From: a bacterium
GTDB lineage: Bacteria > Elusimicrobiota > Elusimicrobia > Elusimicrobiales > UBA9959
Length of the DNA stretch: 64,000 bases
Reading direction: 5' to 3'
NCBI GenBank assembly: GCA_021786295.1
Contig: JAJYNO010000009.1
Span: 35,977 to 99,976 of the forward strand
Shown: one piece after another, positions 237 to 64,000 of the stretch
Numbering within the stretch: the first letter of the stretch is position 1
How the letters are laid out: every line of letters starts with the position of its first letter
The notes under the pieces: generated by a model
Told to the model about the DNA's origin: nothing
Database searches by the model: none
Seen by the model: only the letters and a program-made list of their open reading frames with translations
Position numbers and translations under genes: made by a program

Positions 237-1418
237 ATGCTCATCTGGCTGCTTTCGGACTACGACCACAGGAAACACCTGGCCTTCAAGAGCCTGCTGG
301 GCCGTTTTTCCTCCGCCTTCCCCGAGACGCGGGCCGAGTTCTCCGTGAAGAGCCGCCGCAGCATGTGGGAGAGCCTGTTCGCCCACCTGCGCGACCCCAA
401 GCGCAACCCGATGGCCGACGTGGTAGAGATCCCGCAGAACTGGACGGAGCTCTTCTCCCGGCTCGGCATGCTGTCCGAGCTGGCCTCGGAGGTCGGGCCG
501 CTGGAACAGCGCCGTTACCCGGATTTCATCCTGAAGGAACTGTGCCGGCACGACGAGTCCCGCGCCTGGTCGGCGCCGTGGTGGCTGGAGGCCCCGGCCC
601 TCTTCTACCGGCCGCAGGCGGTCAGGGGGGGCGTGGACGCCCCGGCGGAACAGCTGGCCACCTGGGAGGGCTTCAGGGCCGCCCTGGACAAGGTGCGGGC
701 GCCTTCCCGCCGCGGGAACTTCCGCGCGCTTTCCGTGCCAGGCTCCTCCGGCTCGGTCTCGGTCTCCGACGTGCTGCCGCGCATGTGGGGCAGGCGCGGC
801 GGCCTTTTTTCCGACGATTTCAACCGCGCCACTTTCAACCGCGACGAGACCATCGGCGGAGTGGAGGACTGGCTGGAGCTGGCGGTCAGCGGCAAGATAG
901 AGCTCTTCAGCGCCGACCGCTTCGAGAACGGCCCGAGGCCGGCCGAGGACTGCGCCTTCATGATCTCGTCGCGCAAGCTGCCCGGGGCCGCGCGCGCCGG
1001 CCTGAGGATGCTCCCGTACCCGGGCTATCCTTCCGGCGGCGGCCTGGCGCTGGTCTACAACCTGGCCGTCTCCTCCTCCAGCCGCGGGCACGCCGCCGCC
1101 TCGGCCTTCGTCTCCTGGGCCATGGAGCCTCGCAACGCCTCCTATTTCGCCGAGAGCTTCGGGGTGTTCCCCTGCCTGAGGACGGTTTTCGAGGACCGCC
1201 TGCGCGAGGAGCGCGAGGCGGAGGTGTACCGGAGGCTTTTTTCCGCCCCGGAGCTGATGCCCAACATCATGGTCTACCCTACCGCGGAGCTGCTGCTGGA
1301 GCGGGCGCTGTGGAACCTGTCGCTGAAGATAGCGCGCAGGGACTACGACCGCGAGGACCTGCTGAGGGAGCTGATCATGGCGCAGGGAGAGGCCGACTAT
1401 CTGCTGTCGCTGTATTGA
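237..1418 (+). CDS. Extracellular solute-binding-protein fold (family 1-like) lacking a signal peptide
   Basis: 393 aa. Segments such as 'FPETRAEFSV', 'DVVEIPQNWTELFSRLGMLSEL', 'SAPWWLEAPALFY' and 'AASAFVSWA' resemble sugar-type SBPs. No N-terminal h-region or lipobox, and no ABC permease or ATPase nearby. Confidence 0.65.
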   Translation: MLIWLLSDYDHRKHLAFKSLLGRFSSAFPETRAEFSVKSRRSMWESLFAHLRDPKRNPMADVVEIPQNWTELFSRLGMLSELASEVGPLEQRRYPDFILKELCRHDESRAWSAPWWLEAPALFYRPQAVRGGVDAPAEQLATWEGFRAALDKVRAPSRRGNFRALSVPGSSGSVSVSDVLPRMWGRRGGLFSDDFNRATFNRDETIGGVEDWLELAVSGKIELFSADRFENGPRPAEDCAFMISSRKLPGAARAGLRMLPYPGYPSGGGLALVYNLAVSSSSRGHAAASAFVSWAMEPRNASYFAESFGVFPCLRTVFEDRLREEREAEVYRRLFSAPELMPNIMVYPTAELLLERALWNLSLKIARRDYDREDLLRELIMAQGEADYLLSLY

Positions 1419-1422
1419 GACG

Positions 1423-2943
1423 ATGAAGAAGAACGGGAAGGAACTTTTCGCGCAGGCCGCCGGGGCCGTCCTCGAGGGCCGCGGGGCCTTCATGGCCGCT
1501 TCGCTGGAGGCCCTGGCCGAAAGGTTCTCGCTGGACGCCGCCTCCTATTACGAGTACGACGAGAAGACCGGGCTGCTGCGCCTGCTGCTGCGCCACGCTT
1601 CCGGGGTCTCGTTCGAGCACGAGGAGAACCTGCGCCCGCTGCCGGGGTCCGCCGCCGCCCGCGCGCTGGAGGGCCTGCAGGCGGTGTCCGCCAAGAGCCC
1701 GGCCGGCTGCTTCCTGTACTCCCCTTTCAGGCTCGACCACTGCGACCCGGCCGGAGGGCGCGGCGTGGTGCCGTGCTTCGGTCTGGTGCGCATGGAGCGC
1801 TCCCCGCGCCGCCGGCGCTTCTCCCCAGCGGAGGCGGCCAGGGCCGACGCGTACCTGCGCTCCTACCTGCGCGACTATTACAAGGCGGAGCTGCTCTCGC
1901 TGCACCGCAAATACGACAAGAACGTAGCCGCGATCACGGAGCTGACCGAGGTCTTCGCCACCGCGCTTCGCGTCAGCGACAGCTTCCGCCATATCCTCTC
2001 CGGCATCCAGACCTACTTCGGCTTCGACCGGGTGCGGCTGTACCTGATAGACGAAAAGAACCGCAAGCTGAAAGGCGAGCTCTCCGCCGACATCCGCGGC
2101 CAGGTCAAGAGCATCTCCTACGAGGAGATCCCGCTCGAGCCGGGGGCGCACCGCTTCGCCGACATCGTGCTGGGCAAGAGCTCCGGCGCGTTCATGGAGC
2201 GCTACAAGGACTGCGTGCTGTACATGCCCCTCGCCGTGCAGGGCGTGACGATAGGCCTGCTCATCGTCGACAACCTGCTCAGCCAGCAGAGGATAGAGCC
2301 GGAGGAACTGACGATGCTGAAGTCCTTCGGCGGCCAGATAGCGCTGGCCGTGGACAACTCCCGCCTGTTCGACAAGGTGGAGGAACTGTCCCTCTACGAC
2401 GAGCTGACGAAGCTGCCGCTGCGCCGTTATTTCAACCAGCGCTTCCAGGAGGAGTTCTACCGCGCGGAGCGTTTCAAGCAGCCGCTGGCCCTCGTCTGGG
2501 CGGACATAGACTATTTCAAAGAGGTCAACGACACCTACGGCCACCAGATAGGCGACAAGGTGCTGCGCGAGACCGGCCGCGTGATACTCGCCAACCTGCG
2601 CAAGATAGACTTCCCGTGCCGCTACGGCGGCGACGAGATCATCATCCTGCTGCCGCAGGCCACCGGCGAGGAGGCCAGGCGGCTGGCGGAGCGCCTCAGC
2701 CAGGAGCTCTCCGAACTGCGCATCCCGGTGCCCTTCTCCAAGGCGAAAGAGCTGCGCGTGACGCTCTCCATCGGCGTCTCCACCTTCCCCCAGGACGCCT
2801 CCTCTACGGACGCGCTGCTCGAGAAGGCGGACGACGCGCTCTACTGGGTGAAATCGCACGGCCGCGCCGGCATCGCGCTCTATTCCGACATGGCGGCGGA
2901 GAAGGAAAAGGCCGCCGGAGGAGGGGCTCATGCGCCCGTCTGA
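1423..2943 (+). CDS. GAF-domain diguanylate cyclase (GGDEI active site)
   Basis: GAF-like segments, 'YDELTKLPLRRYF', 'DIDYFKEVNDTYGHQIGDKVL', RxxD I-site (RKID), 'RYGGDEI', 'TLSIGV', 'ADDALYWVKSHGR'. Confidence 0.93.
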   Translation: MKKNGKELFAQAAGAVLEGRGAFMAASLEALAERFSLDAASYYEYDEKTGLLRLLLRHASGVSFEHEENLRPLPGSAAARALEGLQAVSAKSPAGCFLYSPFRLDHCDPAGGRGVVPCFGLVRMERSPRRRRFSPAEAARADAYLRSYLRDYYKAELLSLHRKYDKNVAAITELTEVFATALRVSDSFRHILSGIQTYFGFDRVRLYLIDEKNRKLKGELSADIRGQVKSISYEEIPLEPGAHRFADIVLGKSSGAFMERYKDCVLYMPLAVQGVTIGLLIVDNLLSQQRIEPEELTMLKSFGGQIALAVDNSRLFDKVEELSLYDELTKLPLRRYFNQRFQEEFYRAERFKQPLALVWADIDYFKEVNDTYGHQIGDKVLRETGRVILANLRKIDFPCRYGGDEIIILLPQATGEEARRLAERLSQELSELRIPVPFSKAKELRVTLSIGVSTFPQDASSTDALLEKADDALYWVKSHGRAGIALYSDMAAEKEKAAGGGAHAPV

Positions 2944-4345
2944 GGCCGGCGCCGCCGGGCCGCGCCGCGCGCGGCTCCCGGAAGGCCGGGCTCTCCTGCT
3001 GGGGGCGCTGCTGCTGGCCGCGCTGCCCGGCGTCTCGCTGGCGGTGTTCGAGGACCTTCCCGCCGGGGCCAGGCAGCTGGGGCTGGGGGGGCAGTCGGCC
3101 GCGCTGGAGGACGCTCTTTCCTTCTACGCCAACCCGGCCCTGCCGGGCTCCCGGCGCAAGTTCGAGACCGGCGGCCAGTTCCTCTCCTCCGACAGGACCA
3201 CGCAGGGGCCGGAGTCGGTCACGGCCTACGGGGCCTGGGCGGTAGTGCCGCGCATGGCCTACGGCAGGCTGGGCACCCTCACGCTGGGCTGGCTCGAGGA
3301 CGAGTACGGCGGCAGCCTGAAGCAGAAGACGCTCTCCCTGGGCTGGGGCACCTGGAACCTGATACGCGGCGATTCCGGGATGCTTGACTTCGGCGCCAAC
3401 TTCAAGGTGCTCAGCGCCTCCGACGGGCAGGACTCGGCCTCCGGCGCGGCGCTGGACCTCGGCGCGGCCTTCCGTCCCGACGGCAACCATACGCTCGGCT
3501 TCTCGATACTGAACGTCAACGCCCCGGCTTTCAACGTGGGCTCCCGCAAGGACCACGCCCCGCGCGTGGCGCGGCTGGCCGTCTCGGAGCGGCGGGAGGA
3601 CTATACGATCTCGCTGGACCTGGCGGCCCGCTCCGCCTCGGACGGCTACGGGGGCAACGTCAGTTTCGACCCGGGCGTGGAGCACGTCTGGCGTACCGAG
3701 CGCTCCGGGGCGTTCTATTCCCGGGCCGGCCTCAACCTGGCCGAGCGCGCCTCGGCGCTGAGCGCCGGCATCGGCTGGAAGCACGGCCCCTCCGAGCTCT
3801 CGTACGGCGTCGCGGTGCCGCTGACCGCGCCCGTCTCGGCGGCGCATTCGCTTACGCTTTCGCTGCGCTTCGGGGACCGCGACCTGGAGGACGACTACGA
3901 ACGCCTGATAAAGCGGGAGATAAAGTACCGCGAGGACCTGGTGGAGGCCCTGGACGAGTCCACGAAACGGGAGGGGATGCTGCGCGACGAGCTGGCCTCG
4001 ATGAAGGCGGAGATAGATTCCCTCAGCGCGCAGCTGCGCGGGGAGCAGGCGCAGAAGGCCAGCGTTACCAGCGAGAAGGAGCGCCTGGCCGCGATAGTGC
4101 GCAAGCAGCAGGCCGCCGAGGCCGAGCTCCAGGCGCTGGCCGCCAAGCGCAGGGCGGACAAGCTGAACCAGCTGCGCTACGGTTTCAGCCTGGACTGGGA
4201 GGCCTACCTCAAGCTGAAAGGGGGGGGCGCGCCGCCCGACGTGCTGAAGGCCTCGCTGCAGCGCATGATAAGCCAGTACCAGGATTCCGGGATCGACATC
4301 AGCCGGGCGACCGTGGAGCTGCAGGGGCTGCTGTCCGGCAAATAG
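2930..4345 (+). CDS. PorV/PorQ (UPF0164)-like outer-membrane beta-barrel with C-terminal coiled coil
   Basis: Signal peptide, family motif 'GARQLGLGGQSAALEDALSFYANPA', amphipathic beta strands ending 'LTLSLRFG', then ~150 aa of charged heptad helix. Confidence 0.7.
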   Translation: MRPSEAGAAGPRRARLPEGRALLLGALLLAALPGVSLAVFEDLPAGARQLGLGGQSAALEDALSFYANPALPGSRRKFETGGQFLSSDRTTQGPESVTAYGAWAVVPRMAYGRLGTLTLGWLEDEYGGSLKQKTLSLGWGTWNLIRGDSGMLDFGANFKVLSASDGQDSASGAALDLGAAFRPDGNHTLGFSILNVNAPAFNVGSRKDHAPRVARLAVSERREDYTISLDLAARSASDGYGGNVSFDPGVEHVWRTERSGAFYSRAGLNLAERASALSAGIGWKHGPSELSYGVAVPLTAPVSAAHSLTLSLRFGDRDLEDDYERLIKREIKYREDLVEALDESTKREGMLRDELASMKAEIDSLSAQLRGEQAQKASVTSEKERLAAIVRKQQAAEAELQALAAKRRADKLNQLRYGFSLDWEAYLKLKGGGAPPDVLKASLQRMISQYQDSGIDISRATVELQGLLSGK

Positions 4346-32999: not shown

Positions 33000-34172
33000 A
33001 TGAAAACCATCGCATCATCGATCGCCCTCCTCGCGCTGCTGGCCGCCTGCTCCTATAAAATGCCTGAGGAGCAGGCGGTGAAGATAATTTCCCGCCACGG
33101 CTTCAGCAGGACAGACCCGGGCAAGCTCAGGGAGCTGCTGCGCTCCGGGGGCCTGGCGGGCCTCAGGACGCTGGACAAGTACGCGGCCGTGGTCACGGGG
33201 GAGCGCGGAATAATGATCTCCCCGGCCGCCCCGTCGCCTTCTTACGGCATGCTGGCCGCCGCGCGGGACGGGAAATGCTACCTGCTGCGCGTCTTCAGGG
33301 GCTCGCCGGCGGAAAAGGCGGGCCTGAGGGACGGCGACAGGCTGCTGTCGGCGGACTCCTTCGAGCCCGGCTCCGGGGGCTTCAATAAGGCCCTTTCCGG
33401 GCTGGGCGACCTGGACCTGCGGGTGGAGAGAGCGGCGAAAAGCGGCGCCTCCGCCGTGGAGGTCAAGCTCAAGGCCGCCCCGTTCTCGCCGCCGCTCATC
33501 TTCGGCTTTTATGAGCCTTCCACCCGCACGGCCTTCGTCAGGGTCGGGCTTTTCTTCGGGGATTCGGCCTCCATAGTGGGGGCCGGCATAGCCGGGCTCA
33601 CGAAAATGGGCGCCAGGAACGTCATACTCGACCTGCGCGGCAACAGGGGCGGCCAGCCGGAGGAGGCCGCCGCGCTGCTGCGCCTTTTCGCCCGCGCCCC
33701 CGGGCCCGTGCTGAGGCTGCTCTCCTGCCACAAGGGCTACACCGAGGTGCTGGAGGCCAGGGCGGCCGGGCGCTTCTCCGGTCTGCCGGCGGCCGTGCTC
33801 GTGGACGGCTCCACCTCCATGACGGGGGAGGCCTTCGCCGCCGCAATGCGCGAGGTGGCCGGCGCCAGGGTGGTGGGCGCGCGCACGGCCGGAGACGTCT
33901 CCGTGCAGCGGACGTTCAGCCTCGGGGACGGGCGCGGCCTCGCCATCACGGTGGCCAGGATAGCCCCGCCTTCCGGGAGAGACCTGGAGGGCTCCGGGCT
34001 GGAGCCGGACATACAGGCCGGTTCTTCCGGGGCCGCGTGGGATTCGCCTCCGGCCGGGGAGCTGCTGGACGACGCGGCCTATCAGAAGGCTCTGGAACTT
34101 TTCAAGGCTGGTTCTGCCGCCTCCGCCGCCCCGGCCTCGCGGGCGGTTGACGCGTCAAGAGCCAGCTCTTGA
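33000..34172 (+). CDS. S41/CtpA-like PDZ lipoprotein, catalytic residues degenerate
   Basis: AGGA RBS, ATG 33000, lipobox LAAC, PDZ 'GSPAEKAGLRDGD', 'ILDLRGNRGG', 'GLEPDI'. The Ser and Lys motifs read TSMTGE and TAGDVSVQ. Confidence 0.8.
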   Translation: MKTIASSIALLALLAACSYKMPEEQAVKIISRHGFSRTDPGKLRELLRSGGLAGLRTLDKYAAVVTGERGIMISPAAPSPSYGMLAAARDGKCYLLRVFRGSPAEKAGLRDGDRLLSADSFEPGSGGFNKALSGLGDLDLRVERAAKSGASAVEVKLKAAPFSPPLIFGFYEPSTRTAFVRVGLFFGDSASIVGAGIAGLTKMGARNVILDLRGNRGGQPEEAAALLRLFARAPGPVLRLLSCHKGYTEVLEARAAGRFSGLPAAVLVDGSTSMTGEAFAAAMREVAGARVVGARTAGDVSVQRTFSLGDGRGLAITVARIAPPSGRDLEGSGLEPDIQAGSSGAAWDSPPAGELLDDAAYQKALELFKAGSAASAAPASRAVDASRASS

Positions 34173-34196
34173 CAAAAAACAATCATCTGCTATACT
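34169..34196 (+). promoter_or_regulatory. Strong sigma70 promoter TTGACA-N16-(TGc)TATACT
   Basis: Consensus -35 and extended -10; predicted TSS ~34203. Confidence 0.8.
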
Positions 34197-34216
34197 ATTC
34201 CTGCAGCGAGGTGGAA

Positions 34217-34317
34217 GCCCCGCCCTTTTGGCTTGGTGCAGCGGTGCGGTCGTGGTCAGCAGCAGCGGTCGCAGACAGGCAGAGCGCAGTCGCGTGTGTG
34301 TCCCAAAAGGGCGGGGC
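34217..34317 (+). repeat. 15-bp perfect inverted repeat enclosing a 71-nt CAG-rich loop
   Basis: gccccgcccttttgg (34217-34231) / ccaaaagggcggggc (34303-34317). Confidence 0.8.
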
Positions 34318-34334
34318 CTTCAGCGGATTTCAGA

Positions 34335-34418
34335 GTCCGATAATAGCAAAGCCGGCCAAAGCCGGCGGCGCAAAGCCAAGACCCGTTAAGCGAACGGGGG
34401 TCAGGCTGCCGAAGATGG
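34335..34418 (+). ncRNA. GEMM-I (c-di-GMP-I class) riboswitch aptamer, A20 variant
   Basis: cgataatAGCAAA-gccggc-caaa-gccggc-GGCGCAAAGCC...P3 (gcc/ggc, gacc/ggtc, ccgtt/aacgg)...GGCTGCCGAA follows the GEMM-I layout (GCAAA-P2-GnCGCAAAGC-P3-TGCCGA). Confidence 0.82.
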
Positions 34419-34461
34419 AGAGGCGAGCGGCTTCAGGCCGCCGCTATGGAACGGGTTAACG

Positions 34462-34525
34462 CCGTTCCCGTCGTCTTCGGGGTCCTTAAGCCGGACCTGA
34501 CGAAGACAGCGGGAGCGGTTTTTTT
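34462..34525 (+). terminator. Intrinsic terminator of the riboswitch expression platform
   Basis: Stacked stems ccgttcccg/cgggagcgg, gtcttcg/cgaagac and ggtcc/ggacc, followed by T7 (34519-34525). Confidence 0.85.
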
Positions 34526-34764
34526 ATCGCCGGCCGCGGGGAGGAAGGATGTCCTTCGCTGGAAAAGCCGGAAGTCCGTCTGAAAGGGGCCTTGAGGCCC
34601 TTATACGGCCGCGCGCGGCCGCCGCGGCCGCGTCACGAAGATTTAATTTTCGCGGAACGGCCAATTTATATTATAATGATTCGATTGTTCTGCCCGCCTC
34701 GCGCATGTCCCGCCGGTTACAGGGGACAGGCGCGCGGGGAGGGTGCGGCTTTTTGTTTTCACGC

Positions 34765-35391
34765 ATGACCAGATTTATAATATTTTTAATTGTGCTCGCG
34801 GCTCCGGGAGCCCGCGCCGCCGCGCCCGCGCTGGACCGGGCCTCCGCCGAGACCGGCCTGGCCGACAAGGATTTTCATAACCGCCGCAAGACCGTGGACG
34901 AGCTCGGCCAGGCGCCGGGCGCCTGGAAAATGGACCTGCTGAAGCGGTCCCTCTCCGACGAGGACCCGGTCATCAGGCAGAAGGCGGCCCGCCTGATAGG
35001 CCGGTCGAAGGACGGCGCGGCCTACGGCATCCTGGCCGAAGCCCTGAACTCCACCGACACCGTAACCCGCCTGGGGGCCATGGACGGCCTGCGGGACCTG
35101 GGCGACAAAAGGGCGGCGGCGCCGCTCTCCGCGCTGCTTGGTTCCGGGGACCGGAACACGCGCTGGAAGGCGGCAGAGACGCTGGGCGCGCTGGGCTCGG
35201 ACTCCGCGGTGCCGGCGCTGCGCAGGGCCGCGGTCTCGGACAAGGACCGCTTCGTGAGGAAGTCCGCCGTGGAGAGCCTGGGCAGGATAGGGACGCCCGC
35301 GGCCAGGGCGGCGCTGAACGCGCTCAAGGCCGGCCCGGACCCGGAGGTCTCCCTCTGGGCCGGCAACGTGCTGAAAACCCTGAAAAAGTGA
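34765..35391 (+). CDS. Secreted HEAT-repeat (PBS lyase-like) protein
   Basis: ATG 34765 gives the signal peptide MTRFIIFLIVLAAPGARA; repeats 'L.D.D..vR..Aa..LG'. An in-frame upstream ATG at 34549 also has an SD-like sequence. Confidence 0.85.
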   Translation: MTRFIIFLIVLAAPGARAAAPALDRASAETGLADKDFHNRRKTVDELGQAPGAWKMDLLKRSLSDEDPVIRQKAARLIGRSKDGAAYGILAEALNSTDTVTRLGAMDGLRDLGDKRAAAPLSALLGSGDRNTRWKAAETLGALGSDSAVPALRRAAVSDKDRFVRKSAVESLGRIGTPAARAALNALKAGPDPEVSLWAGNVLKTLKK

Positions 35392-35422
35392 GGACGGACG
35401 CGGCGGCTTGAAAGTCTAAGAT

Positions 35423-38400
35423 ATGCGCGCAAGGGGAAGAACCGGACTTTTCCGGGCGGCCAAGAAAAGCCTGCTCCTGGCGGGCCTTTCGCTTTTTTTC
35501 TCCGTCCCTTCCCTCTTCACCGCCGCCGGCGCCGACACCAAGACAGTTCAGACCATCTCCGGCGCCGATACGGTGGACTGGCCGGCCAGCCGCAAAGTGC
35601 TCTACGAGCAGGGCTACGGCCTCACCTGGGTCTTCTTCGAGAACGCGGCCGGCTTCTCCTACAGCGCCTTCAACGGCAACTCCTGGACCACCCCGGCCAC
35701 GGCCATCTCGGCGGCCGAGGCCGGCGGCGGGACCAACCCGATGTACGGCAGCGTCTACTACGTGGCCGCCTCCAGCGACGTCTACGTGATAACCACGGAC
35801 CCCGGCCCCGACCTCACCGGCAGCCCGTACAACAACGTCTACATGAAGAAGGGCCGCCTGAACGCGGACGGCAGCATAACCTGGGGCGGCCTCCAGACCA
35901 GGACTATAACCGGGACGGTCGGCGGCGGCACCGGCGACTGCTACGCCGGCGGCGGCGTGGACATAGCGCTGCTGGGCAACGAGACCAGCGGCGTGACGGC
36001 CTGGAGCTGCGACGCCAAGCGCACCGGGACGAGCTACAGGATCTCCGTGCTGGGCCAGGACGGCATGGGCACCAACCTGAGCGGCGGCTCCAACTTCGCC
36101 GTGGACGCCAAGGATTCCAACTCCGAGGGAGCCGGACCGTACAAACAGTTCGGCAGCCTGGTGCCGGTATACGACAGCGGCGCCTGGTACATGCTCAACT
36201 TCCAGAAGGACAGGAGCGACTACTACGGCACCCTCCGCGAGCACCGTTACGACAACAGCGGGGTATATTTGGCAAGGGAACTGGCCATAGCGCCCACAAA
36301 CACACCCGGCCAGGACCAGTGGGCCTATTCGGCCGCCGCCCAGCCGCAGTCCTCCATAGTGCACCTGGTATATACGGATAATACCGGGAACCTTATTTAT
36401 AAGCGGCGCGCCGGGCCCAGCAGCTGGCCTACCACCATCACCCTGACCACCAACGGCACCTCGGCCAGCCCGAATTACCACCCCAGCGTGGTCTTCGCCG
36501 CCAAGGACCCCGGCGACCCCAGCTCCTTCGACAAGGTGTACGTGATCTACGCTTCCACCTACGGCTCCGTGAACTACGCCGTGGGCTCGGCCACCGCGGC
36601 CAGCATCAGCGACTTCGACATGGTGAGCGGCCTCAACTGGAACCAGTCCGCCGGCGGCGCCACCTCGGTGCAGGCGCCCTCGTTCATACAGCTGCCGAAC
36701 CCCATCCCGGTGGCCTGGAACGGCAGCGGCGGGGTGCAGTTCGACCGCCTCCCCACCTCCAGCTACAGTCCGCCCTCCGTCGCCTCCGCCTCGCCCCTGA
36801 GCGTGGGCATAGGGGCCGGCGTGGCGGACTACGCCGGCAGTTCCTATTACGACATAACCCTGAACGGCTCCGGCTTCCTGAACAACCCGCCCCCCGGCGT
36901 CTCGTTCCAGAGCGGCGGCAACCCGGTGTCCGGCATAACCGTCTCCAGCGTCACGTACCTGTCCGGCACGCAGGTAAGGGCCAGCATAGCCGTGGACCAG
37001 TCCGTGGGGCAGGGCCCCGTGGACCTGGTGGTCACCAACTGGGACGGCCGGAACGGCTTCGCGACCGGCATAGCCACCGTCACGGTGCCCTCCTCCGCCC
37101 TCACCAGCCCGGTGGAGCCCATAGACTACTCCAGCGGCATAGTCTCCTTCGCGGGCGTCTCCGGTTTCGCCCCTTCCGGCTACGCCGGGGCGCCCACGCT
37201 CGCGACCCCGCAGGTCAGGATAACCCGCGGCGACGGCTACGAGTGGGACGGCACCCAGTTCGTGGACCCCGCGGTCTCGGGCGAACAGTGGCGCAACGCG
37301 ACCTCGGGCACTGCCAACTGGCTCTATTCCGACTGGCCCCCGGCCAGCCAGGCCGACGGGCAGAGCTACGTCCTCACCAGCCGCGGCAAGACCAGCGACA
37401 GGGGCTACTCCACTCCCAGCTCCAACGTGACCTTCACCATAGACAAGCTGGGGCCCGCCGTTTCCTATACTTTCCCGGCGGCCAACTCCAGCAACAATTC
37501 CATCACGGCCATACAGGGCACGGCGGCGGACGCCGGGGTCGGCATCCAGCACGTGAGCATGCAGCTGATAGACTCCGGCGACAACCTTTTCGGGAACGGC
37601 AACGACCTGTACTGGACCGGCTATCCCGCCACCGGCTTCCTGGCCTCCTCCACCTGGTACTACGTGGTCAACAACAGCGCCGTGCCCAGCGAGAACGCGA
37701 ATTACAGCTGCGGCACTTCCTGCCCCTACAAGAGCGTCAACTGGATAGTAAAGGCCACGCCCGATTCCGGCGGGGAGCCGCAGCTGCCCTCGTTCATAGA
37801 CGGCAGGAAATACCGGCTGCAGGTGGAGTCGGCCGACAAGTTCAACCCGGACACCTACGCCTCCAGCTTCGACTTCTATTACGACACCACCCCGCCCAAC
37901 GTCTCGGTGAGCGTGCCCGCGCAGCTGATGCCCAACCAGCCCGTGAGCATGGGCGACCCCTCCAACGTCTGGCGCAACAACTTCGACTTCCTGCAGGGCA
38001 GCCTCTCCGACAACGTCGTGGACCCCGTCATAGGCAGGCGGCACGTCTATTACTGCGTCTACGAGTACGGCGGCACCGACAAGTGGGGCACCGGCTGCGC
38101 CGGCCCGACGCCTGTCTACGCGTCGGCGCTCTACGCCCCCTCGGCCGACCCCTACAGCTACAGCATCGCGGTCTCCACCAACTGGCAGAACGGCTTCTGG
38201 TACCACCTGGCCGTGTACGCCGACGACGCGGCCGGCAACCTGGACGGCTCGCCGCTGTCCCCGGCCACCAGCGGCTATTTCTACTACGACGCCCTGCCGC
38301 CCAATATTTCCATAACCTATCCGGCCAACAACGTCAACTACGGCGCGGGCACCATGAACGCCCTGCTCGGCACCTCGCACGACGACCACTCCGGCGTGGC

Positions 38401-62400: not shown

Positions 62401-64000
62401 CAGCATGACGGCCGGCAGCGCCACGCTCTCCAACATCCTCCTGCGCACCGCCGGCTACAGGACCATCACCGTGACCGACCAGAGCGGCACCTACCCGGCT
62501 CTCGGCTCCACTCCCAGCGGCACGCTGACGCTGCAGCCGTATACCCCGACCAGGATCCGCGCGCTGCTGCCCGGAGAAAGTCCGGCCCCCGGCAACGTCG
62601 CCGCCAACGGCCGTTCCGGCGCCCCTACGGCGCAGCAGGCCGGCTCCACGTTCACGGTCACGGTGAACATAACCGACTCCTTCTGGAACCTGACGCCGGG
62701 GGCCAGCCAGGAGATACAGCTCTCGGCCGACGATCCCAACGCCGTAATAACGCCCTCCTCCCAGGTCGTGGTCGGCTCCGCCACCTTTACGGTGACCCCG
62801 ATACGGGCCGGCTACACCGTGCTGACCGCGGCGGTGGTCGCCCCCGGCCTGCCCGGAGGCCCTACGCTGGCCCAGGACGTCGCCAGCACGGTGCAGGTGG
62901 CGCCGGGGGTGCCCAAGCGCCTGCTGGTGCTGCTGCCGGGCCAGAACTGGCAGCAGGGGACGCTGTCCGGGGTAGGGGTCACGGGCACCCCGTCCGACAC
63001 GACCGCGGGCAGCACCGATTTCAAGGTGCGCGTCGGCGTGGTGGACAGCTACTTCAACCTCGTCCCGGGCCGGCCCGCGGACGTCAGGGTCAACACGCCT
63101 TCGGACCCGTTCGCGCCCGCGGTCAGCACGGCCGCCGTCAACACCGCCTACGGCTATACGGACCTGATCTACGTGACGCTGAGGCGCGCGGCGACACAGT
63201 ACCTGACGGCCACCGACTACGGCAACTCCGGCCTGGCCGACGACCCGGGCTCCTCCACCTTCACGGTCCGGCCGGCCGCCCCGGTGGGGCTGCAGCTGGT
63301 GCTGCCCGGGGAGCTGGCGGTGCCGGGCTCCGGCAGCTATCCTTCGGGCGGCAAATCGCTGACGGCCTCCACGCAGACGGCCGGGGTGACCTTCAAGGCC
63401 ACCGTCAACCTGGTGGACAGCTACATGAACGTCTACAACGGGCTTTCCGTAGGGCCCACGGTCTACCTGGTCACTTCGGACCTATACGACATCGACTCCT
63501 CGAGCGTGCCGCTGAACTACGGGACGGTGCAGGTCCCGCTGACGCTCGTCACCAGGTCGGCGGCCTCCACCGTCAAGGTCTTCCCGGTCAGCGCCGCGGA
63601 CAACCAGGTCTGCTCCGGCAGCTCCGGCGGGATATGCCGCAACGACAACGCGGCCGCCATGTCCTCGTTCAAGGTCTACGCCTCGACGGCGACGCGCCTG
63701 CTGGTGGTGCTGCCGGGACAGAGCCTGGTGGAGGGCAAGTGCAATATAAGCCCGCCCTGCGCTTCGGCCTCGGTGGCCTGGCCCGGCGTGAGCGGTCCGC
63801 CCTCGGCCCACACCATAGGCACGGGCTCGCTCTTCGCCGGCGTCTATCTCACCGACGCCTTCTTTAACCGGGCCACCGACGCGACCGGCTCCGCGCAGGA
63901 CACCAATCCTCCGGCTGTGATGCCCGAGGTGCGCGTTACCATGCCCAACGACCCCGGGGCCACCCCGCCCAGCCCGCAGACGCTCTCCAACGGCAGCTCG
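35423..64000 (+). CDS. Giant secreted Ig-like repeat surface protein/adhesin, >9,526 aa, 3' end beyond window
   Basis: ATG 35423 with signal peptide MRARGRTGLFRAAKKSLLLAGLSLFFSVPSLFTAAGA. The track lists no terminated ORF in this frame, and spot translations through to 64000 give coherent T/S/G/Y/W-rich repeats. It is absent from the track because there is no stop in the window. Confidence 0.93.
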   Translation, partial: MRARGRTGLFRAAKKSLLLAGLSLFFSVPSLFTAAGADTKTVQTISGADTVDWPASRKVLYEQGYGLTWVFFENAAGFSYSAFNGNSWTTPATAISAAEAGGGTNPMYGSVYYVAASSDVYVITTDPGPDLTGSPYNNVYMKKGRLNADGSITWGGLQTRTITGTVGGGTGDCYAGGGVDIALLGNETSGVTAWSCDAKRTGTSYRISVLGQDGMGTNLSGGSNFAVDAKDSNSEGAGPYKQFGSLVPVYDSGAWYMLNFQKDRSDYYGTLREHRYDNSGVYLARELAIAPTNTPGQDQWAYSAAAQPQSSIVHLVYTDNTGNLIYKRRAGPSSWPTTITLTTNGTSASPNYHPSVVFAAKDPGDPSSFDKVYVIYASTYGSVNYAVGSATAASISDFDMVSGLNWNQSAGGATSVQAPSFIQLPNPIPVAWNGSGGVQFDRLPTSSYSPPSVASASPLSVGIGAGVADYAGSSYYDITLNGSGFLNNPPPGVSFQSGGNPVSGITVSSVTYLSGTQVRASIAVDQSVGQGPVDLVVTNWDGRNGFATGIATVTVPSSALTSPVEPIDYSSGIVSFAGVSGFAPSGYAGAPTLATPQVRITRGDGYEWDGTQFVDPAVSGEQWRNATSGTANWLYSDWPPASQADGQSYVLTSRGKTSDRGYSTPSSNVTFTIDKLGPAVSYTFPAANSSNNSITAIQGTAADAGVGIQHVSMQLIDSGDNLFGNGNDLYWTGYPATGFLASSTWYYVVNNSAVPSENANYSCGTSCPYKSVNWIVKATPDSGGEPQLPSFIDGRKYRLQVESADKFNPDTYASSFDFYYDTTPPNVSVSVPAQLMPNQPVSMGDPSNVWRNNFDFLQGSLSDNVVDPVIGRRHVYYCVYEYGGTDKWGTGCAGPTPVYASALYAPSADPYSYSIAVSTNWQNGFWYHLAVYADDAAGNLDGSPLSPATSGYFYYDALPPNISITYPANNVNYGAGTMNALLGTSHDDHSGVATVQYRIEHPPLAKWSAASKTWIDQTAPIWNVAGTTTAIPFDTWQSSETAQAGQWLSGEQYTFIAQSLDKAGNYSASYSTTVFKYDTTPPVTLVLNPPPAGRYSDNQFTNIAGTANDMPDTTRQAGADMTCIGVQRQSDGLWWNGTALGWQSGRSDSCQTWSYNWAHQSMGGFWSTVGSTEAFNIYAWSQDMVQVPGPNVESSTTLKDSFIYDVLPPTSTLTSPQDNTWYSDQAGYQLSSIAGTAVDLPLTGPAAGGSISDMQVEVRDEVTLTCWNGSDFTGTCGSAATWKDMGLVAGSTYSYNTATLMAAAVENRPYRVTIRSMDNAMDLDNNPKPNVESSFTEGRNRSYFRVDRTPPSTLIQSPSASSVYVFSSLSGTAQDSYTQVQKVQVAYFSVTLQKWWNPASGSFDQGDGINPPPASAFVAASTTTANPVPWTVTGSSVPALTNGQSYLVFARATDSVGNQTAFPGYSGFTTPPNQSSLIEITKVTPLPSSVITTPPSGSPYYRPTDLTSISGTLSAATTVQVMITDLSVTPNQVWTPGGWVSTTTYLAGCTDSTYVIGQSTCGYFGVDTISLANWTKSTSGIWPAGTAEFSVKSRAASDADGITQLTPLPQRYFYIDGDDPATTLVDPAAAYERSLPVIDGTASDAGVGKVANVEVAISTGSGSYYWNGTSWQSGSPVWLPAAADDGAFDSNLEAWNLNSGLPVFQNSKTYEVQVRVTDMAGRQTLYPIPYQQFTIDTASPTAAIALPDGSHGINAMTALSGTAYDNALNQSVQVAIQQLGSPQLWFDGSGFNKLQTDPNWLYVANGVNGFLSPNATSWMYAPAGLDSAFPGGLQYLLLTRSTDVAGNIQTNFQVNISSRVVFVDKAPPVTSVTLPADDGDGVSGRYKSAYIGESLTSSRFYGSAADNFYAANNAGVEQTQMQLSYLSAGDTWYWLGTYFSSGTAAQNGSWLNASGVGSWIYPNDIAWPAGDREYTLEARSMDATRAADGTGTGNWETAFSQGQNVKKFIICDTPPDVAITTPTELSLTNDTNVYGTANGNLAGFSKAQVRISTGSGAAIRYWSGGSSAWVTNPETWNDSIRLGNTSWYYTIPASLLVEKTTYTVSARALDYAGNYSVTYSTRDFLNQRPSSFVQDPYKAAYNTLTQLDGYATDNTGVSAVAISIFNYDQNKCYDPSQPGAWKTVGCLSDNDAPWVAPQVSVWASSASWVYTVSDSTWTSGAHYRIRVKSMDQAGNWDVTYATATFQFDTEIPVSNVVYPSSGSYLPLSANPMTIQGTAFDGFSGLNQVNFYLQRSDGWYWNGIGWQGTAIALNGDAPYSGWSKQITNSAAYIDGEQYSITSWATDNAGNQESPAVKSMFVYDVTPPTSTITYPYDGGYISQTGMVTGGSYDPPHGMTGDVRVRIKALSGPNAGYYWRVSDSSWTLQNAPEVWNSVASYGSLSSGATWWQLNTAPWQTGETYEVNSYAVDKAGNAEVVYSTATNIKADFTPPVSTVTLPAQGATYGDVPLPQLTGTAYDSSPGQVDHVYVQFGYLPSGQGGAITNTFDGQSWQANGATWLPVSSVTLSAGNWTYNVPDSVWNWNNSWYTVRAYAVDKAGNVEGTIWRSDFYYSAPFPVTAISAPADGSYTNTLPQKVSGTASKFTYSSLSGVQVSVERKSDGFYWYGSSFSAPGSMQSAPRVYFNASDVSVLGDGSLYWDWTSNISTSGWTDNTSYYFLSKGYGPAGPEQTADLVGNTVIYDATPPNTAVAVPAAAIYQNMPQLSGTASDTPPGLVSYAQITIQDLTYPATYWNPATGAWQNSVVWATTTLNSGNWSVGAGLPAWTDGTWYRVTPKAADMAANVQTGGSVDFLIDRTTPTADISSFVALNSTVTAVNGQVRSSLNSLIGTAWDNAGPGGGAGVLDKVLLHITRPSQPGTSLRYWRWDTGAWDASQPADSDIYWATATVSVPGVTASSWTIAGLPPPGAYIQGDSYIIMSRAKDTALPAGNTQQAFVDGFSSFTVVWDVNPPSVVLTSYGDTLGTGRINPGGDWTLYGTAYDSPGGVTSVTNVKLRIARLEGATTYYWTGLDWGTTPSEVQPDAFTPPNWDYTLPAAQLPSDEKYMLFTRGIDNAVPPNSGSFGAETDVILDTTPPLVQITSPTALAEGSPFSIYGTADASLAGQNYTQIRFSTGTGLSTQYWTGAGWTAAPDTWIQTVKLGDTSWYYTLPAAMLASDVSYTASARTLDYAGNYSAVYSTYVFTYDTVPPYVTLSFPADGAAYSNIKVSTPIAGTSNQNDQTNPYSKVSAVYVQVKDLSNTTCFDGSAFSACPSWQLAGGTLDNWSYNSPSLGFIGNRQYYIEAKAVDYAGNESAHAAATIKFDVDKPTSTITYPLQGYTTGFTQVRGQAADAADTYRADLGTYTVNVAFQLVGGSWWNGSAFTAADPVWYQAYADTSPYNIGKTTVTWSYNLPAALSVYLADPGNQNSNYRVVSWCYDLALNPEYGPPGAQPKTGDVPAGDGVTLTYDNQKPVSYITLPSLASYNSLPSITGTSGDSVGVAIKQTWITVYMPALGKYYDPSLSPPWSPPGSDENSAPWLSPQETVYQSSSSWTYAIQDSTWTSGATYRIRARALDVAGNYDTVYTTATFLYDNQAPISTVTVPADGANLNYMPAQLQGTSYDPGSSGVSSIALYITRDSDGQYWNGINGWSPTPQMLTASPPFDNWTSAINPAMFTGNDGVRFYVQTNARDAAGNQEGYGVKSSFVYDVTPPTSTIAYPYNNGYISQTGNINGGSYDRPDGMVRDELVRIQDINPSSANYLKYYSVAGSSWTSAVTANSALNYGSLSPGATWWQLNAAPWQSGETYEISAWAADKAGNFQVTYATATAVKADFTPPTSTVTYPVNGVDVHSELTSISGSASDVPPGMLDKVLVSYYCEDTNYPAIYGKYWNSADAAWDSSNPVFYPAAINGDTWYTTGASTPTWYNNKNGVWYRVFAKAVDQAGNAVADPGQALPDSPEIHFRLFPPPPVSYIITPPAGVPNYSAVPTISGTAVYATTVAVRIIDYGPDLTYNSGNDDLVWDGTAWVSTSTAWATTVGYLGVDSFSAPNWSITVPSWNGNRRYRVISRAYDGVNDVYETVTPDQGNEFILDTSNPAAGVTAPSTTYLHSLNALAGTASDVAPGTVVSGYFRVKRQASAQYWNWQASTFTALSGQYTDLTAVPSWNSTLGVYLLNYTTDYFQSGAAFEPNQSYVAQLSVTDKAGNAGSAADMPFTIDVASPTAYITIPYDANNSGIRRMDSISGTAADNFANANVSIAIQEQDYHLWYSNSAQGFVSSAQPIWISLLNNTSGYLSASATSWTYAPAGFDSRFSAGSDGDTYLVLARAQDMAGNVQDQFASPVSSTVIKIDKAPPSSYFAFPADDSGAGTGRYNSSSLGFVNGTAADNYYTVNNAGVAEVELRLSYLQGGTTYYWDGSNFVSGGGFDTTAWQPITPSGSAPVWSWVYAHPVTMPGDREYRAEARAMDDARLDDDTGDGNWQVNYTTVNFIVDDTPPLVAVTTPTASALSQLQGIGGTADASIAGFSGAQVRISTSSGASYWNGSGWTSSPVWLNAAKLGNTSWYYTVDQAMLQDNAVYTVEAMAKDYAGNYSSVYSTYTFTYDTTGPSVSVSYPVNGAAYSGVLTSTPIAGSSSSSQSAPNTGVSTVAVAISELDSLNHYIDCFDGSAFSACASPVWLPAQSAGGSNWQFNSPALSFADDHKYHVEARAQDVAGNYSAVQGVDFRYDVDPPTSTIVSPGSGYINAWSQITGYAWDNYNNNRVYDAGFGTYTVLVAIRRVGGSWWTGSAFNGGGPSWLEASVDTSAYSQGYTTYTWTYSMPSALQTAIVSARTNDYYVVPWSYDLALNPEYGPANGQPAAGDIPAGVGRIVHFDNDVPVAVATSPVNISAQNNVPYIYGVATDTGVIAGVQVLVKARGSWNAEWDGGTTGTNSDWDNTSYAYWSTATLTNGAWSLALPPLNPVNNYKLSVWARAYDLAGNWQATPTNTQILNNQNADGSAAYYFDYDTTLPQTGVTAPDRYALNVATGMIAGTAFDAGIEPSGVAYVYLRLHRSDGAYWHFINGNWTDATASDNFLAGFGSPWAEPITPSSQDDGYRYDVYTLAVDNAQNNSAKQYFSTFTFIVDETPPASRITFPANNSFIGAVPAITGTADDSVEDLHGWTAPRDFESGISSSTGVQVALQRLTDGLWWDGAGFTLSSRQWNPVSFSGTSSGTWSYSLPAGAIADGTTYYAMSRSQDIAGNLETQYTTNYFTGDVTPPVSMAYAPSGTTASVPQIVGTAWDTPPGQLKTTNMVMLSLKEVDPVVSCYDNGLNLFVACPGGLYPNNRIWFTTGTLTVSPDPTQLSTWTWNTSAIGWTNSAQYNVIALAIDKAGNQKAYGTVENPDISFTLVTPQAMATIATPLGPDDKNYMATDIPSVSGTGSNLRAVDSVQIRLERLIGSTSWWYEPSLSWVSQDTWTWYSSSDQSWQQHISSVAFSVDNASYTFVVTPYNSTGQTGTDATRRVVIDNTKPVGSILYPGTPYINAMGVLYGTATDPNNITQPSLQKDFGGDVYVRIKNVENGYYWTGSSFTATVTNIETSYSPQTVVSWSTATAVTAGLQDGQRYQVLLLPKDKAGNMESNESAMPSYQVLYDTNPPSAYFSFPGNRQVLRSLTAITGTAYDPIGAYSPYMKSDLNNVQLQIYDEQGVKWWADGAGGFTITGSSFNVVSGTDTWSYSPPNLVSALTSGKYYVIQAMATDRAGNQQTGFTDVVSSRVFIWDTTPPTSAIAQPADQGTYMPGALTGVNALSGTATDSPLPFVGVRLSTPQVNLSYIDGGTTYYWTGSSFSSYTVTFDGAWQDAIGTDTWHYPFDGANWVSDKLYTLYVRAFDLAEPLGPNGGNEQNPWTVHQFVVDGTPPVSRITVPQDGSFIQNSLPAISGTSYGGLSGLASPPSGLKLRISHVIGAQTYYWSGTAAGGWSTTPVDLPVNYTASASTITWSYPPATYDPPDISTNNHVYTVSVAGLDKAGNQEAYNSVNVTSDFNYPSISISTPMAGADAFYGAARPTGQLAGDSLDAPAGVAPPITTEITDLSESGAVKPKWDGAAWSVVNSTWLAVSGLSPWSYSPPAWPANKRFRVELYAVDNAGNQVPPGTYVREFIYDVNTPSSTILSPSSIYQNASQVASFSGTAVDWVNSPSTEAMSGLAPQGVQVQIVDNSQTGVTFNGTGFASGDYWRNAQFTPTSQITDAVLGVNIVQAADWSYPPAGDSWPPALVQGHSYTVRSRALDRAGNQENYQERTFTYDASAPTTTITMPGNFAYASLPLSSGTLREDYSYVPPGGIQLLFKRNSDSQYWTGSGWGAFAAADWLDATSVYQSSWTYADAALSNYFNTLSGSLDFTEYIRGTDAAGNTNLPQTPAPSGGVVFKMDHFVPVSLTTYPATGNGQLVFRNTPVSALAGTASDYDPGSPSGLNGVYVRIRRYDSGGTPCYYDQTFGNWVTAAGGSEWMPQNAGTLSAWAKSLPATAFSGSNGGDCYPGLDKGDGFRFEVQSYAVDNTQPVNGGPNTEVNYSTASFLLDYSTPTAAILQPADQSYLRNIYQLAGTAADPVAGGGIPSGLASIEYELTDTDANPNRYWNFNALQWQTAYVSSVTAPAANWTVTSIPNNNPSGNDSWAVGRSSATFQLRIKVSDKAGNYSGFANNVSTFTLDLLPPDSQITSPPTQNGYYLAVSSITGTAADYNSGVSTVALSVQQDNTQDADCTNTGNNSYYWNGSSWQGGQVWLPVNSYNPVGGSWRYDDASKIVFNAYCYYVVMSSAVDNVGNGQVTWGSRRFKFTPPPAVTRVLVPANGVYYRNLSQVSGTANVNTQSVWLNARRLQDNDYWNFGSSSWQVAFSSVQVIPAAGAWTFASSLPPLVTNSSYTFTAVGLNGSGVFEAAPVTNQVYFDTTPPVSLVLLPSQTQLYYNSLPKLGGTAQDPPGVSPPASGVSGVWVRIQETTGPYSGDYWDNSASAYTPTQTDNKAAYYVAASSWDFTVSYPTAAFTDGAGYTAQSYSLDNTYDNGTFKGTQSPLSAPVVFNYDVSAPTATVTSVSPGQARSAVSVASGAVQETMVLSNFGQPPGTQISEVRLHLRYNNVNSYWSGSGWVPAAPATYFDAQVFQSSWTSAALPVWADAGSYTLWAEAIDKAGNDQTNFTANGSSVTFTVDSSAPVVAVLNPVPGSKISSVASVTGTANDPNWSTNSGIAGASNVQVQVSYLYGGSTYYYDNALSFSSYTLGDTNSWWPATNWAAQGASSGTWTYAPAGLSSAMVGDRVYKFRARAQDNAVPVPNPAVLTDNAASNSGVIYDVTPPVSRITLPKDGSKIRSLSAITGTALDNLAGISTLGQISVSIAALSPVAGNWNGASPGDFSLPSETFQPLSGGSLAATYDGLNWSFTAPALSDGYTYLMKVKASDDVTPPNVETNVSSVTFTYDITPPAAAIVSPVSLPNSGANLNALASVSGTAFEQFTLKSASVSVQEDDTHLYYDAQTSTFNSVTQKWLTAGISGTGPNYTWTVPAPPLTDNKNYNLQVTAIDAAGNQLTPPSATVIRYDVTPPVSQPVAPANGSFINKLASVAGTASDPNSNPSGVAGTQIRVQRNSDGKFWTGATWGSETWLSGVPGTAWTKSSQLPPSDNNVGLTDGNVYTVTSRSYDVAANTQSVILAGTSFMFDVSSPTAFVQLPLNGARYNALPQLSGTAADANNVTFPQVRIYDIPLGKYWMTGTGTCGGVTLPGWVGNTCPAFPEIWNVAVGSSATGAPFTWSYDSSGVAWPNRDAGLRVDLKAQDAAGNYSVTSSTFSFDNVPPSSLILYPPVDGTTYSSMTAISGTSYDLTSAINEVDIRMWYLSGGTTYYWNPVAPHWTASDPGWFSIPDGPGSKGIDNPWTYSDPNYDFDDPGTNNFAWKEGTNDHANGKLFYIVTRAIDSTTNDQVVLATRTFQFDNVPPLSAPVQPGPDTAYSGLTTLWGTAADDVSGVASVKVSILSEDATGGPKYYDGSGFNNAAETWLPVQNLYPSSWTYTSALLSFSDTMHYVVKSSATDSVGNVQTVVGESRFLFDTTPATSTVLAPLNGNVYEDNESLIGNYYDPGYTTGINGTGSGVFHDASNPWGRGLVEVAVFRDTYPYMSSVGPLVFGPGSGWDDSGYFWNGSTWTDVSAGVVWVPAQFDTQPTWVYTALQCASDAQRAAHTCWVRGDRYVVWSRATDNAGVLGTPLSGPKFYISAPAKSFKVWVDAGQNPMTAGDIVNLNVQATDADGNVAAAYIGTVTFQMDSGLGPEVMGANAAEAVDELHGLPPEYQFQPSDYGFKTFQMRLRKAGSRSLLVSDLYTPSINGNSTLTVNPAAAQQTQIIADYDPAGEMPAPGTVSGKTGTPRTKPAGASVPFLLQVTDKYWNVVPSSSVSLGVTDTDPNNSLVSPDGPAVFVGSATINRTFVSADSQGWSLLCNGAVSSKVPVTPNQAAGLLALMPGETRNQGKYTVQPYGKDGVVADQLVGSTFTVRVYAVDQFYNTDVSTSFPVSVSMPGDKYEVNPAPAQLSNGTTSFVFTPIVAGTQTVEAQQAGAGYLSGGTSFYVTPNTVKVWWGGPAQLNLVVPGQTLEPGLPPYGSNPSPGGKLGSPSPLTAGVTVQMSVYLTDQYYNVVLGTTPFMAVSSNTPQVEISFPNDPNIAARGLPPFSGGFDIRSLIGGSTTFSVIPVTHDESPGMTATVYDTGLTGTNFSTDTVTGIVVKSAPATHLLLMVPNEVPAEGLIGGKSGTAGPLTAGSTYQITVRAVDDFGNLASDGRSVRIQSNDVYASTYAAGAPAVFPPQALANGQTVFKGFLPSAATGNLVIDAVDNDTIYPKLSTSTDSGVTVSPGQASRLIVLLPTQSLVPGKVLPPYGTAGSISTQTAGVGFSAQVYAADSRYNMVSDVSLNKTMHAVADDAFGGPSSNGDLGTFSMTAGSATLSNILLRTAGYRTITVTDQSGTYPALGSTPSGTLTLQPYTPTRIRALLPGESPAPGNVAANGRSGAPTAQQAGSTFTVTVNITDSFWNLTPGASQEIQLSADDPNAVITPSSQVVVGSATFTVTPIRAGYTVLTAAVVAPGLPGGPTLAQDVASTVQVAPGVPKRLLVLLPGQNWQQGTLSGVGVTGTPSDTTAGSTDFKVRVGVVDSYFNLVPGRPADVRVNTPSDPFAPAVSTAAVNTAYGYTDLIYVTLRRAATQYLTATDYGNSGLADDPGSSTFTVRPAAPVGLQLVLPGELAVPGSGSYPSGGKSLTASTQTAGVTFKATVNLVDSYMNVYNGLSVGPTVYLVTSDLYDIDSSSVPLNYGTVQVPLTLVTRSAASTVKVFPVSAADNQVCSGSSGGICRNDNAAAMSSFKVYASTATRLLVVLPGQSLVEGKCNISPPCASASVAWPGVSGPPSAHTIGTGSLFAGVYLTDAFFNRATDATGSAQDTNPPAVMPEVRVTMPNDPGATPPSPQTLSNGSS
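37085..60258 (+). repeat. ~60 tandem Trp-rich bacterial Ig-like repeats (~115-165 aa each)
   Basis: Recurring 'D.tpP.s.i..P....isGTA.D..sgv..V.v......yWnG..W....W...g...Wsy....g..Y....rA.D.AGN.....f.yD'. Counted by eye from the D-x-x-P boundaries. Confidence 0.85.
60259..64000 (+). repeat. ~10 repeats of a second Ig-like type
   Basis: Recurring 'L.vllPG....PG....G..GtP...tAG..f.v.V..vD.y.N' at ~350-450-nt spacing. Confidence 0.75.

Follow-up and report, generated by a model that had tools for sequence, protein, structure and literature searches.

The DNA that we analyzed, referred to here as the window, is a 64,000-nucleotide stretch from a member of the Elusimicrobiales whose assembly (2.3 Mb, 37 contigs) is 79% complete. 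An S41 peptidase gene ends at 34172, upstream of a riboswitch, and the first gene after the riboswitch (34765–35391, + strand) encodes a secreted HEAT-repeat protein of 208 aa (Pfam HEAT_2, 1.1e-31). This gene is followed by a giant open reading frame that starts at 35423 on the same strand and continues beyond the end of the window at 64000, where 9,526 aa are open; in the contig it encodes 12,795 aa and ends at window-equivalent position 73810. The giant protein has a signal peptide and bacterial Ig-like repeats (Big_13, Big_3_2, Big_3_3, and Big_3_4), and its C-terminal 100 residues give weak, below cut-off matches to FlgD_ig and Por_Secre_tail (T9SS type A sorting). Directly 3' of this gene are a second riboswitch and a gene for a PorV/PorQ-family protein (NF033709; score 112 bits, cut-off 90). 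The HEAT-repeat gene and the giant Ig-repeat gene would form one operon, with the riboswitch in its leader and a strong sigma-70 promoter.

We examined the riboswitch with covariance models. The segment 34335–34413 (+ strand) matched the c-di-GMP-I family (RF01051) over the complete model, positions 1–87, with 55.7 bits and an E value of 3.5e-08. This is above the gathering score of 35, by which the segment belongs to RF01051, and it bears out the original prediction of a GEMM-I riboswitch at this site. That prediction had placed the element at 34335–34418; its start holds, but the model stops at 34413, 5 nt earlier. With cmscan this was the sole Rfam match above gathering in the whole 64-kb window. 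Membership in c-di-GMP-I-GGC (RF03167), a family of the same clan, was rejected: the match at 34336–34414 scored 48.8 bits, under the gathering score of 59.

The base at 34345 in the RF01051 alignment is A, as had been predicted for the specificity position. It corresponds to model position 11, which is unpaired, has G as its consensus, and lies immediately 5' of the paired GC in GCAAA. PMC6140456 describes the roles of G20, A47, and C92, and by that account it is the equivalent of G20 in the Vc2 aptamer of Vibrio cholerae. The G that makes the c-di-GMP-specific contact is thus replaced in the window; a minority of c-di-GMP-I members is known to have A at position 20, so this still allows membership in the class. 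One guanine of the ligand pairs with G20 of Vc2 and the other with C92, and the published account names A47 through a backbone contact only (PMC6140456, PMC5888326). The window RNA retains an A at 34372, after CGC, as the A47 equivalent and a C at 34409, which opens the 3' CCGAA, as the C92 equivalent. A47 stacks between both ligand bases.

Both P2 and P3 are formed, and they are retained across 11 orthologues, where one pair is compensatory (paired fractions of 100% for P2 and 85% for P3). The P2 hairpin occupies 34351–34366 and its loop at 34357–34360 is CAAA, which agrees with the prediction, in place of the consensus GAAA; orthologues have GAAA, CAAA, UAAA, or UUAA in this loop. The tetraloop receptor, a four-base bulge, is deleted from P3. 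As a comparison, the window aptamer and Vc2 share the three-helix fold of the covariance model, the A47 and C92 equivalents, the G-C/C-G pairs at the foot of P2, and a location in a 5' leader in front of surface or membrane genes, whereas A20, U19, the CAAA loop, and the absence of the tetraloop-receptor bulge in P3 set the window aptamer apart. From its sequence, we file the element as a new A20 member of the known c-di-GMP-I class that carries GEMM-Ib sequence marks.

The second riboswitch (L001) contains a GEMM-I aptamer of 61.2 bits, 39.6 kb downstream on the same contig, and it also has A at site 20. By the base at this site, aptamers are called A20 or G20 below. In the set of order-level relatives, GEMM-I aptamers are present at 1–3 copies per genome in 22 of 24 congeners and in both genomes of a second family; none was found in the 14 genomes of a small-genome sister family. 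Position 20 is A in 50 and G in 4 of all 54 matches, which come from 25 genomes, and the pocket and stems are near-invariant across these aptamers. Across Elusimicrobiota, 49 of 151 genomes contain GEMM-I aptamers, with up to 12 copies per genome. GEMM-I was found in none of the 45 and 44 genomes of two families with small (1.2–1.8 Mb), near-complete genomes and is present in most other families of the phylum.

Three paralogous riboswitch types occur among the relatives. In type A, the aptamer ends 1–7 nt 5' of the start codon of a gene for a PorV/PorQ-family outer-membrane protein. Type B, to which the window copy belongs, consists of aptamer and terminator followed by the HEAT-repeat gene and then the giant gene; in 11 type B loci, tblastn placed the HEAT-repeat gene 3' of the aptamer. 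Type C is a 91-nt aptamer 5' of a gene for a secreted Kelch-like protein. A spacing of 35–53 kb between two aptamers on the same strand recurs in at least 10 congeners. The predicted regulon would thus include the giant surface protein, its likely outer-membrane partner of the PorV family, and the secreted Kelch-like protein.

The sigma-70-type promoter of the window copy lies at 34169–34196 (+ strand). It consists of TTGACA, a 16-nt spacer, and TATACT with TG before the -10, and it matches the consensus at 11 of 12 positions. The promoter search returned two overlapping sites, both starting at 34169, when 0.1 was expected from shuffled sequences, and aptamers of types A and B share the conserved pattern TTGACAAA...TCTGCTATAAT upstream. 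The palindrome TTGACGCGTCAA at 34147–34158 (+ strand), 22 nt upstream of the -35 hexamer, is a candidate operator to which a transcription factor would bind. At the equal promoter offset, 22–23 nt upstream of the -35, TTGACNNGTCAA is found in 37 of the 39 promoter-bearing type A/B loci of relatives, including L001, and this palindrome is probably an operator common to type A and B loci. Between promoter and aptamer, a long leader hairpin can form at 34205–34330 (+ strand) with a minimum free energy (MFE) of -63.9 kcal/mol and a z score of -2.4. The hairpin is GC-rich and approximately 125–130 nt long. Leaders are 164–250 nt in type B orthologues and approximately 35 nt in type A. In a permissive scan of 34000–34900 for other Rfam families, the leader hairpin gave only sub-threshold matches to F6 and miRNA families, with E values of 0.14–0.63. 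For 34100–36100, no RNA data set was listed, and the four listed DNA data sets come from a single study.

Downstream of the aptamer are two small platform hairpins (34422–34468, + strand) and an intrinsic terminator (34461–34525, + strand) made of a long hairpin at 34461–34518 and seven T at 34519–34525. The first small hairpin, at 34422–34445, is variable, with four pairs altered on both sides among orthologues. The second, GGAACGG/CCGUUCC at 34448–34468, overlaps the base of the terminator 5' arm and is 100% paired in all 11 orthologues. The terminator hairpin is part of the full-length MFE fold (-93.4 kcal/mol); its helix is 90% paired in the 11 orthologues, and three pairs have compensatory changes. 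The terminator 5' arm begins approximately 50 nt 3' of the aptamer and has no nucleotides in common with it. However, the part of this arm at 34472–34489, CCGUCGUCUUCGGGGUCC, is complementary to the aptamer 3' strand and tail, GGCUGCCGAAGAUGG, at 34404–34418 (+ strand), and this alternative pairing is the predicted anti-terminator. When we folded 34335–34490, which ends before the terminator 3' arm, the MFE structure was a three-way junction with the tail paired to the arm (-74.1 kcal/mol, compared with -62.3 kcal/mol when the tail was blocked).

Conservation of this pairing was compared across the 11 orthologues. The CCGAAGA/UCUUCGG core (34409–34415 with a partner inside 34472–34489) has standard pairs in 10 of them, with six of its seven pairs invariant and pair 80–141 broken in one. 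Because the core pairs do not vary they cannot covary, so the core is uninformative, neither for nor against the pairing. One pair flanking the core does covary (GC in six orthologues, AU in three). The pre-terminator fold uses the 3' tail in five orthologues and the 5' J1/2 strand in the other six, with the same terminator arm engaged in each case. Whichever pre-terminator fold is considered, the full-length MFE prefers the terminator by 5.7 kcal/mol, so the switching decision would be kinetic.

According to this model, in cells lacking the ligand the pocket strands (GGCUGCCGAAGAUGG, or 5' J1/2 in some orthologues) would pair with the terminator 5' arm and allow read-through. With ligand bound, the same strands would be locked in the aptamer, the terminator would form, and transcription would stop at 34519–34525. 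Since the anti-terminator is built from nucleotides that the ligand would lock, an OFF switch is predicted. The direction comes from folding energies, and on balance we lean toward a transcriptional OFF switch in which the ligand would cause termination.

High levels of c-di-GMP usually turn adhesion on. A c-di-GMP OFF switch 5' of an adhesin-like gene counters this pattern, which would be better served by an ON switch that senses the same ligand, c-di-GMP, and whose binding prevents termination, as in Geobacter pilM and pgcA. With such a switch the adhesin-like operon would be on at high c-di-GMP, as is common. The GEMM-Ib switches of Geobacter are described as ON switches in two reports (PMC6456294, PMC9262584). 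Against this, the terminator 5' arm starts approximately 50 nt after the aptamer and shares nothing with it, and the only conserved link that we found is the complementarity between pocket strands and terminator 5' arm, which gives read-through when the aptamer is empty. We consider the ON direction unlikely. A separate route to an ON switch, in which the downstream GGAACGG would pair with the P3 5' arm and act as an anti-anti-terminator, was rejected when the complementarity proved to be lost in orthologues with a different P3.

To judge which dinucleotide the aptamer would sense, we compared it with the 22 GEMM-I aptamers of one Geobacter metagenome-assembled genome (MAG; L213–L234). Twelve of these have the classic look ACGAYAAUA-CU[A/C]AAC ... 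GCGGAAAGCC; the remainder are five A20 aptamers with GCAAA and five G20 aptamers. The 5' context of the window aptamer, CGAUAAUA, is identical in 12 of the 22, so that the Geobacter-type context described in the original prediction was found again, and J1/2 is AUAAUA in the window as in those 12. In the numbering of Gs1761, J1/2 comprises A9–A14, P2 C15–G40, J2/3 A41, and J1/3 G74–C75 (PMC6274999). Compared with the Geobacter GEMM-Ib aptamers Gs1761 (pgcA) and Gm0970 (pilM), the window aptamer is alike in A20, in J1/2 (AUAAUA and A-Y-AAUA), in the A of J2/3, and in the GC of J1/3, and both have a terminator-based expression platform. The foot of P2 differs, being the canonical GEMM-I G-C/C-G in the window and C-G/U-G in Geobacter. 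The genes differ as well (a giant Ig-repeat protein here, cytochromes or pili in Geobacter), as does the direction, predicted to be OFF here and ON in Geobacter.

Because the junction strands are those of a proven cGAMP sensor type, the pocket is fully compatible with cGAMP and as fit for it as that of such a sensor, and the window RNA can very probably bind 3',3'-cGAMP in vitro. This raises the alternative that the A20 aptamers of the window family are cGAMP-selective GEMM-Ib switches and belong to a second network whose synthase is missing from the assemblies or unrecognized. This compatibility of the pocket, with J1/2 identical to the 12 Ib-type aptamers of Geobacter, is the strongest point in favor of this idea, which was that of the original prediction. 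Other points are the prevalence of A at the G20 site in the order-level relatives and the 1200–1600-fold selectivity for cGAMP that is reported for Geobacter aptamers of similar look (PMC6456294, PMC8835794). In addition, G016 and G018, both congeners, resemble Geobacter with its two ligands in having A20 as well as G20 aptamers. By contrast, the canonical foot of P2 speaks against it, as do the cyclases and the history of position 20 described below.

A cGAMP network would need a source of cGAMP, either a Hypr GGDEF enzyme or a DncV-like CD-NTase in the same genome. Hypr enzymes are recognized by a Ser at the site where PleD has Asp (D344), which corresponds to Ser348 of GacA (PMC8835794). 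The window encodes a GAF-GGDEF diguanylate cyclase at 1423–2940 (+ strand; PF00990, 155.7 bits; TIGR00254, 168.9 bits), which has the motif NDTYGHQIGDKVL ... RYGGDEI and, in GHQIGDKVL, Asp at the PleD D344 position; this is the residue originally reported for the local cyclase. We then read the same site by regular expression in every GGDEF match of a set of genomes. All four matches in the host genome were parsed and have Asp (GHQIGD, GHDVGD, GFEAGD, and GYLKGD); they comprise one GAF-GGDEI, one GGEEF, and two Rec-GGDDF proteins. Five congeners that are 97–100% complete gave 30 matches, of which 28 could be parsed, with Asp in every case. One other genus of the family (G155) together with four genomes of families f6 and f8 gave 31 matches, of which 23 were parsed (22 Asp, 1 Asn). 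Thus, two of 34 matches in the genus and eight of 31 in the other genomes were unparsed.

In this census, 55 GGDEF domains were parsed in 11 genomes of Elusimicrobiota (seven of the window family and four of f6 and f8), and none of them has Ser or Thr at the Hypr site. Within the window genus, none of the 32 domains parsed from 34 matches in six genomes is of the Hypr type, with the host genome in this set being 79% complete. The Geobacter MAG, used as a control, had 23 matches, 17 of which were parsed (15 Asp and 2 Ser), so Hypr enzymes are picked up by this procedure in a genome that has GEMM-Ib. The lack of Hypr GGDEF domains in the window lineage is a further difference from Geobacter. The divergent Rec-GGDDF response regulators are an additional observation: they were seen at 1300–3018 (- strand) in L005 and 1051–1986 (+ strand) in L006, have relatives in families f1, f6, and f8, are conserved across the class, carry the motifs ND.YG[F/Y]..GD and GHIGGDDF, and match approximately two thirds of the Pfam model.

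CD-NTases gave a similar picture. SMODS CD-NTases are sporadic, being present in 4 of 41 genomes of the genus and absent from the host genome (79% complete). The CD-NTase of one congener (G015) best matches CBASS cyclase models, for which the PADLOC cyclase models were applied solely to name this protein, and phmmer found no relative of this cyclase among all six-frame ORFs of the host genome. Neither kind of cGAMP synthase expected beside a GEMM-Ib switch was found in the same genome. The host genome does encode two PilZ domains and one DAC domain, and no EAL domain was found in it.

We also followed position 20 across the phylum. When the best aptamer of each of 29 other Elusimicrobiota genomes was taken, 24 had G20 and five A20, and three of these five were from the window family. 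The type A riboswitch is informative here: 5' of the PorV-family gene it has G20 at four loci in families f5, f6, and f8 (CGAUAA[C/A]G-GCAAA), and it has UA at 19–20 in three genera of the window family, g1 (L001), g6, and g7, with the g6 and g7 copies reading CGAUAAUA-GCAAA. Because sister families have G20 in front of the same gene, A20 with U19 is derived in the window family from a G20 ancestor. This derivation within Elusimicrobiales from G20 orthologues is one more difference from Geobacter GEMM-Ib. Lineages with G20 and those with A20 have the same GGDEF families, namely Rec-GGDDF, a GGDE[I] form, and a tandem pair of the GGEEF kind, of which the host genome shows only one protein. Within the genus, the type C aptamer 5' of the same Kelch-like gene has A in eight congeners and G in two. 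On the other hand, U-A at 19–20 (window 34344–34345) is fixed in all type A/B aptamers, in at least four genera, which shows selection for A and not drift.

The base at 19 varies with that at 20 more widely. The Geobacter MAG has 17 A20 aptamers, 16 of them with U19, and U19 is likewise present in 43 of the 45 distinct A20 sequences of order-level relatives that we extracted by pattern. G20 aptamers mostly have A, C, or G at 19, and five have U (L013, L017, L044, L244, and L256).

The swaps between G and A in front of an unchanged gene, with unchanged cyclase families, are easiest to explain by the same signal sensed with different affinity. Published affinities of A20 aptamers fit this view. 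According to PMC6140456, the affinities of Vc2 with the G20A change are 53 nM for c-di-GMP and 120 nM for cGAMP, and those of Cbe 1-2, a natural A20 aptamer, are 30 nM for c-di-GMP and 463 nM for cGAMP; the authors term bispecific behavior widespread in the GEMM-I class. Published A20 aptamers thus bind c-di-GMP well, and selectivity cannot be read from sequence. The window aptamer resembles aptamers such as Cbe 1-2 in having A20 in an otherwise canonical GEMM-I frame, a likeness drawn from their description. As in the window lineage, no cGAMP synthase is known in the host of Cbe 1-2.

Together, these data support the idea that the cellular signal would be c-di-GMP, with the host's Asp-type GGDEF cyclases as its source, and that A in place of G20 would lower the affinity and broaden the specificity of the aptamer rather than define a separate cGAMP pathway. 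With good confidence, we take c-di-GMP to be the most probable cellular ligand, as suggested by the cyclase census, the evolution of the site, and the published A20 affinities. For the reading as a whole, that the element at 34335–34413 is a functional GEMM-I riboswitch of the A20 subtype in Elusimicrobiales with c-di-GMP as its ligand and an OFF mechanism, our confidence is about 0.62. As regards the claim that the element is a candidate c-AMP-GMP sensor, the pocket strand is of the Geobacter type and binding of cGAMP is plausible, but a cGAMP signal in vivo is unsupported. The same applies to the second cyclic-dinucleotide network that had been suggested for this lineage, given that Hypr GGDEF domains were not found among the parsed domains, CD-NTases are sporadic, and sister families have G20. 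A cGAMP-selective switch in the window family is thus quite improbable in our view. That the aptamer is a decaying relic devoid of ligand-dependent function, as its non-GNRA P2 loop and deleted tetraloop-receptor bulge might suggest, is very hard to reconcile with a pocket and stems that are near-invariant in 54 aptamers from 25 genomes and with the conserved promoter, terminator, and gene context.

A more speculative possibility, to which we give little credence, is that the window family switched an ancestral c-di-GMP regulon to cGAMP or another mixed dinucleotide through the G-to-A change, using a synthase beyond current markers. The Asp-type Rec-GGDDF proteins (G[F/Y]xxGD, GHIGGDDF), which are conserved in the class, may be candidates for such a synthase. 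We know of no cGAMP signaling in Elusimicrobiota, and a ligand switch of this kind, if true, would place cGAMP signaling outside the Hypr and DncV paradigms.

Returning to c-di-GMP as the preferred ligand, the interest that remains lies in a natural switch from G20 to A20 in an orthologous riboswitch and in an unusual regulon. A20 is commonly read as a sign of cGAMP sensing. The same riboswitch in front of the same gene has G in sister families and A here, while the cyclase set is visibly unchanged and neither a Hypr nor a DncV-type enzyme was found, which makes this a clean natural test. If the RNA prefers c-di-GMP, A20 would be an affinity dial and GEMM-Ib calls made from one base would be unsafe; if it prefers cGAMP, an unknown synthase would exist in Elusimicrobiota. 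Cyclic-dinucleotide control is predicted to extend to an outer-membrane protein of the PorV family and to a surface protein of 12,795 residues, and this in a phylum that has hardly been studied by experiment. Our searches of the papers available to us returned no relevant paper linking Elusimicrobia with a c-di-GMP riboswitch and none on the phylogenetic spread of the GEMM-I G20 state in relation to cGAMP.

Two further expression platforms were seen among the relatives. In type C (L027, L039, L049, L051, L055–L057, L017, L040, and L044), the aptamer 3' strand GCCGGNNNGGCUGCCGAA, 18 nt long, is repeated approximately 20 nt downstream, and the CCGAA of the duplicate opens the terminator 5' arm, an unusual platform based on strand duplication. 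A second platform variant, type B2 (L016, L024, L030, L035–L037, L042, L043, and L054), has a conserved short frame, AUG [K/E][K/E]R, that starts directly 3' of the aptamer and crosses the terminator hairpin; it is either a candidate leader peptide or mere RNA structure.
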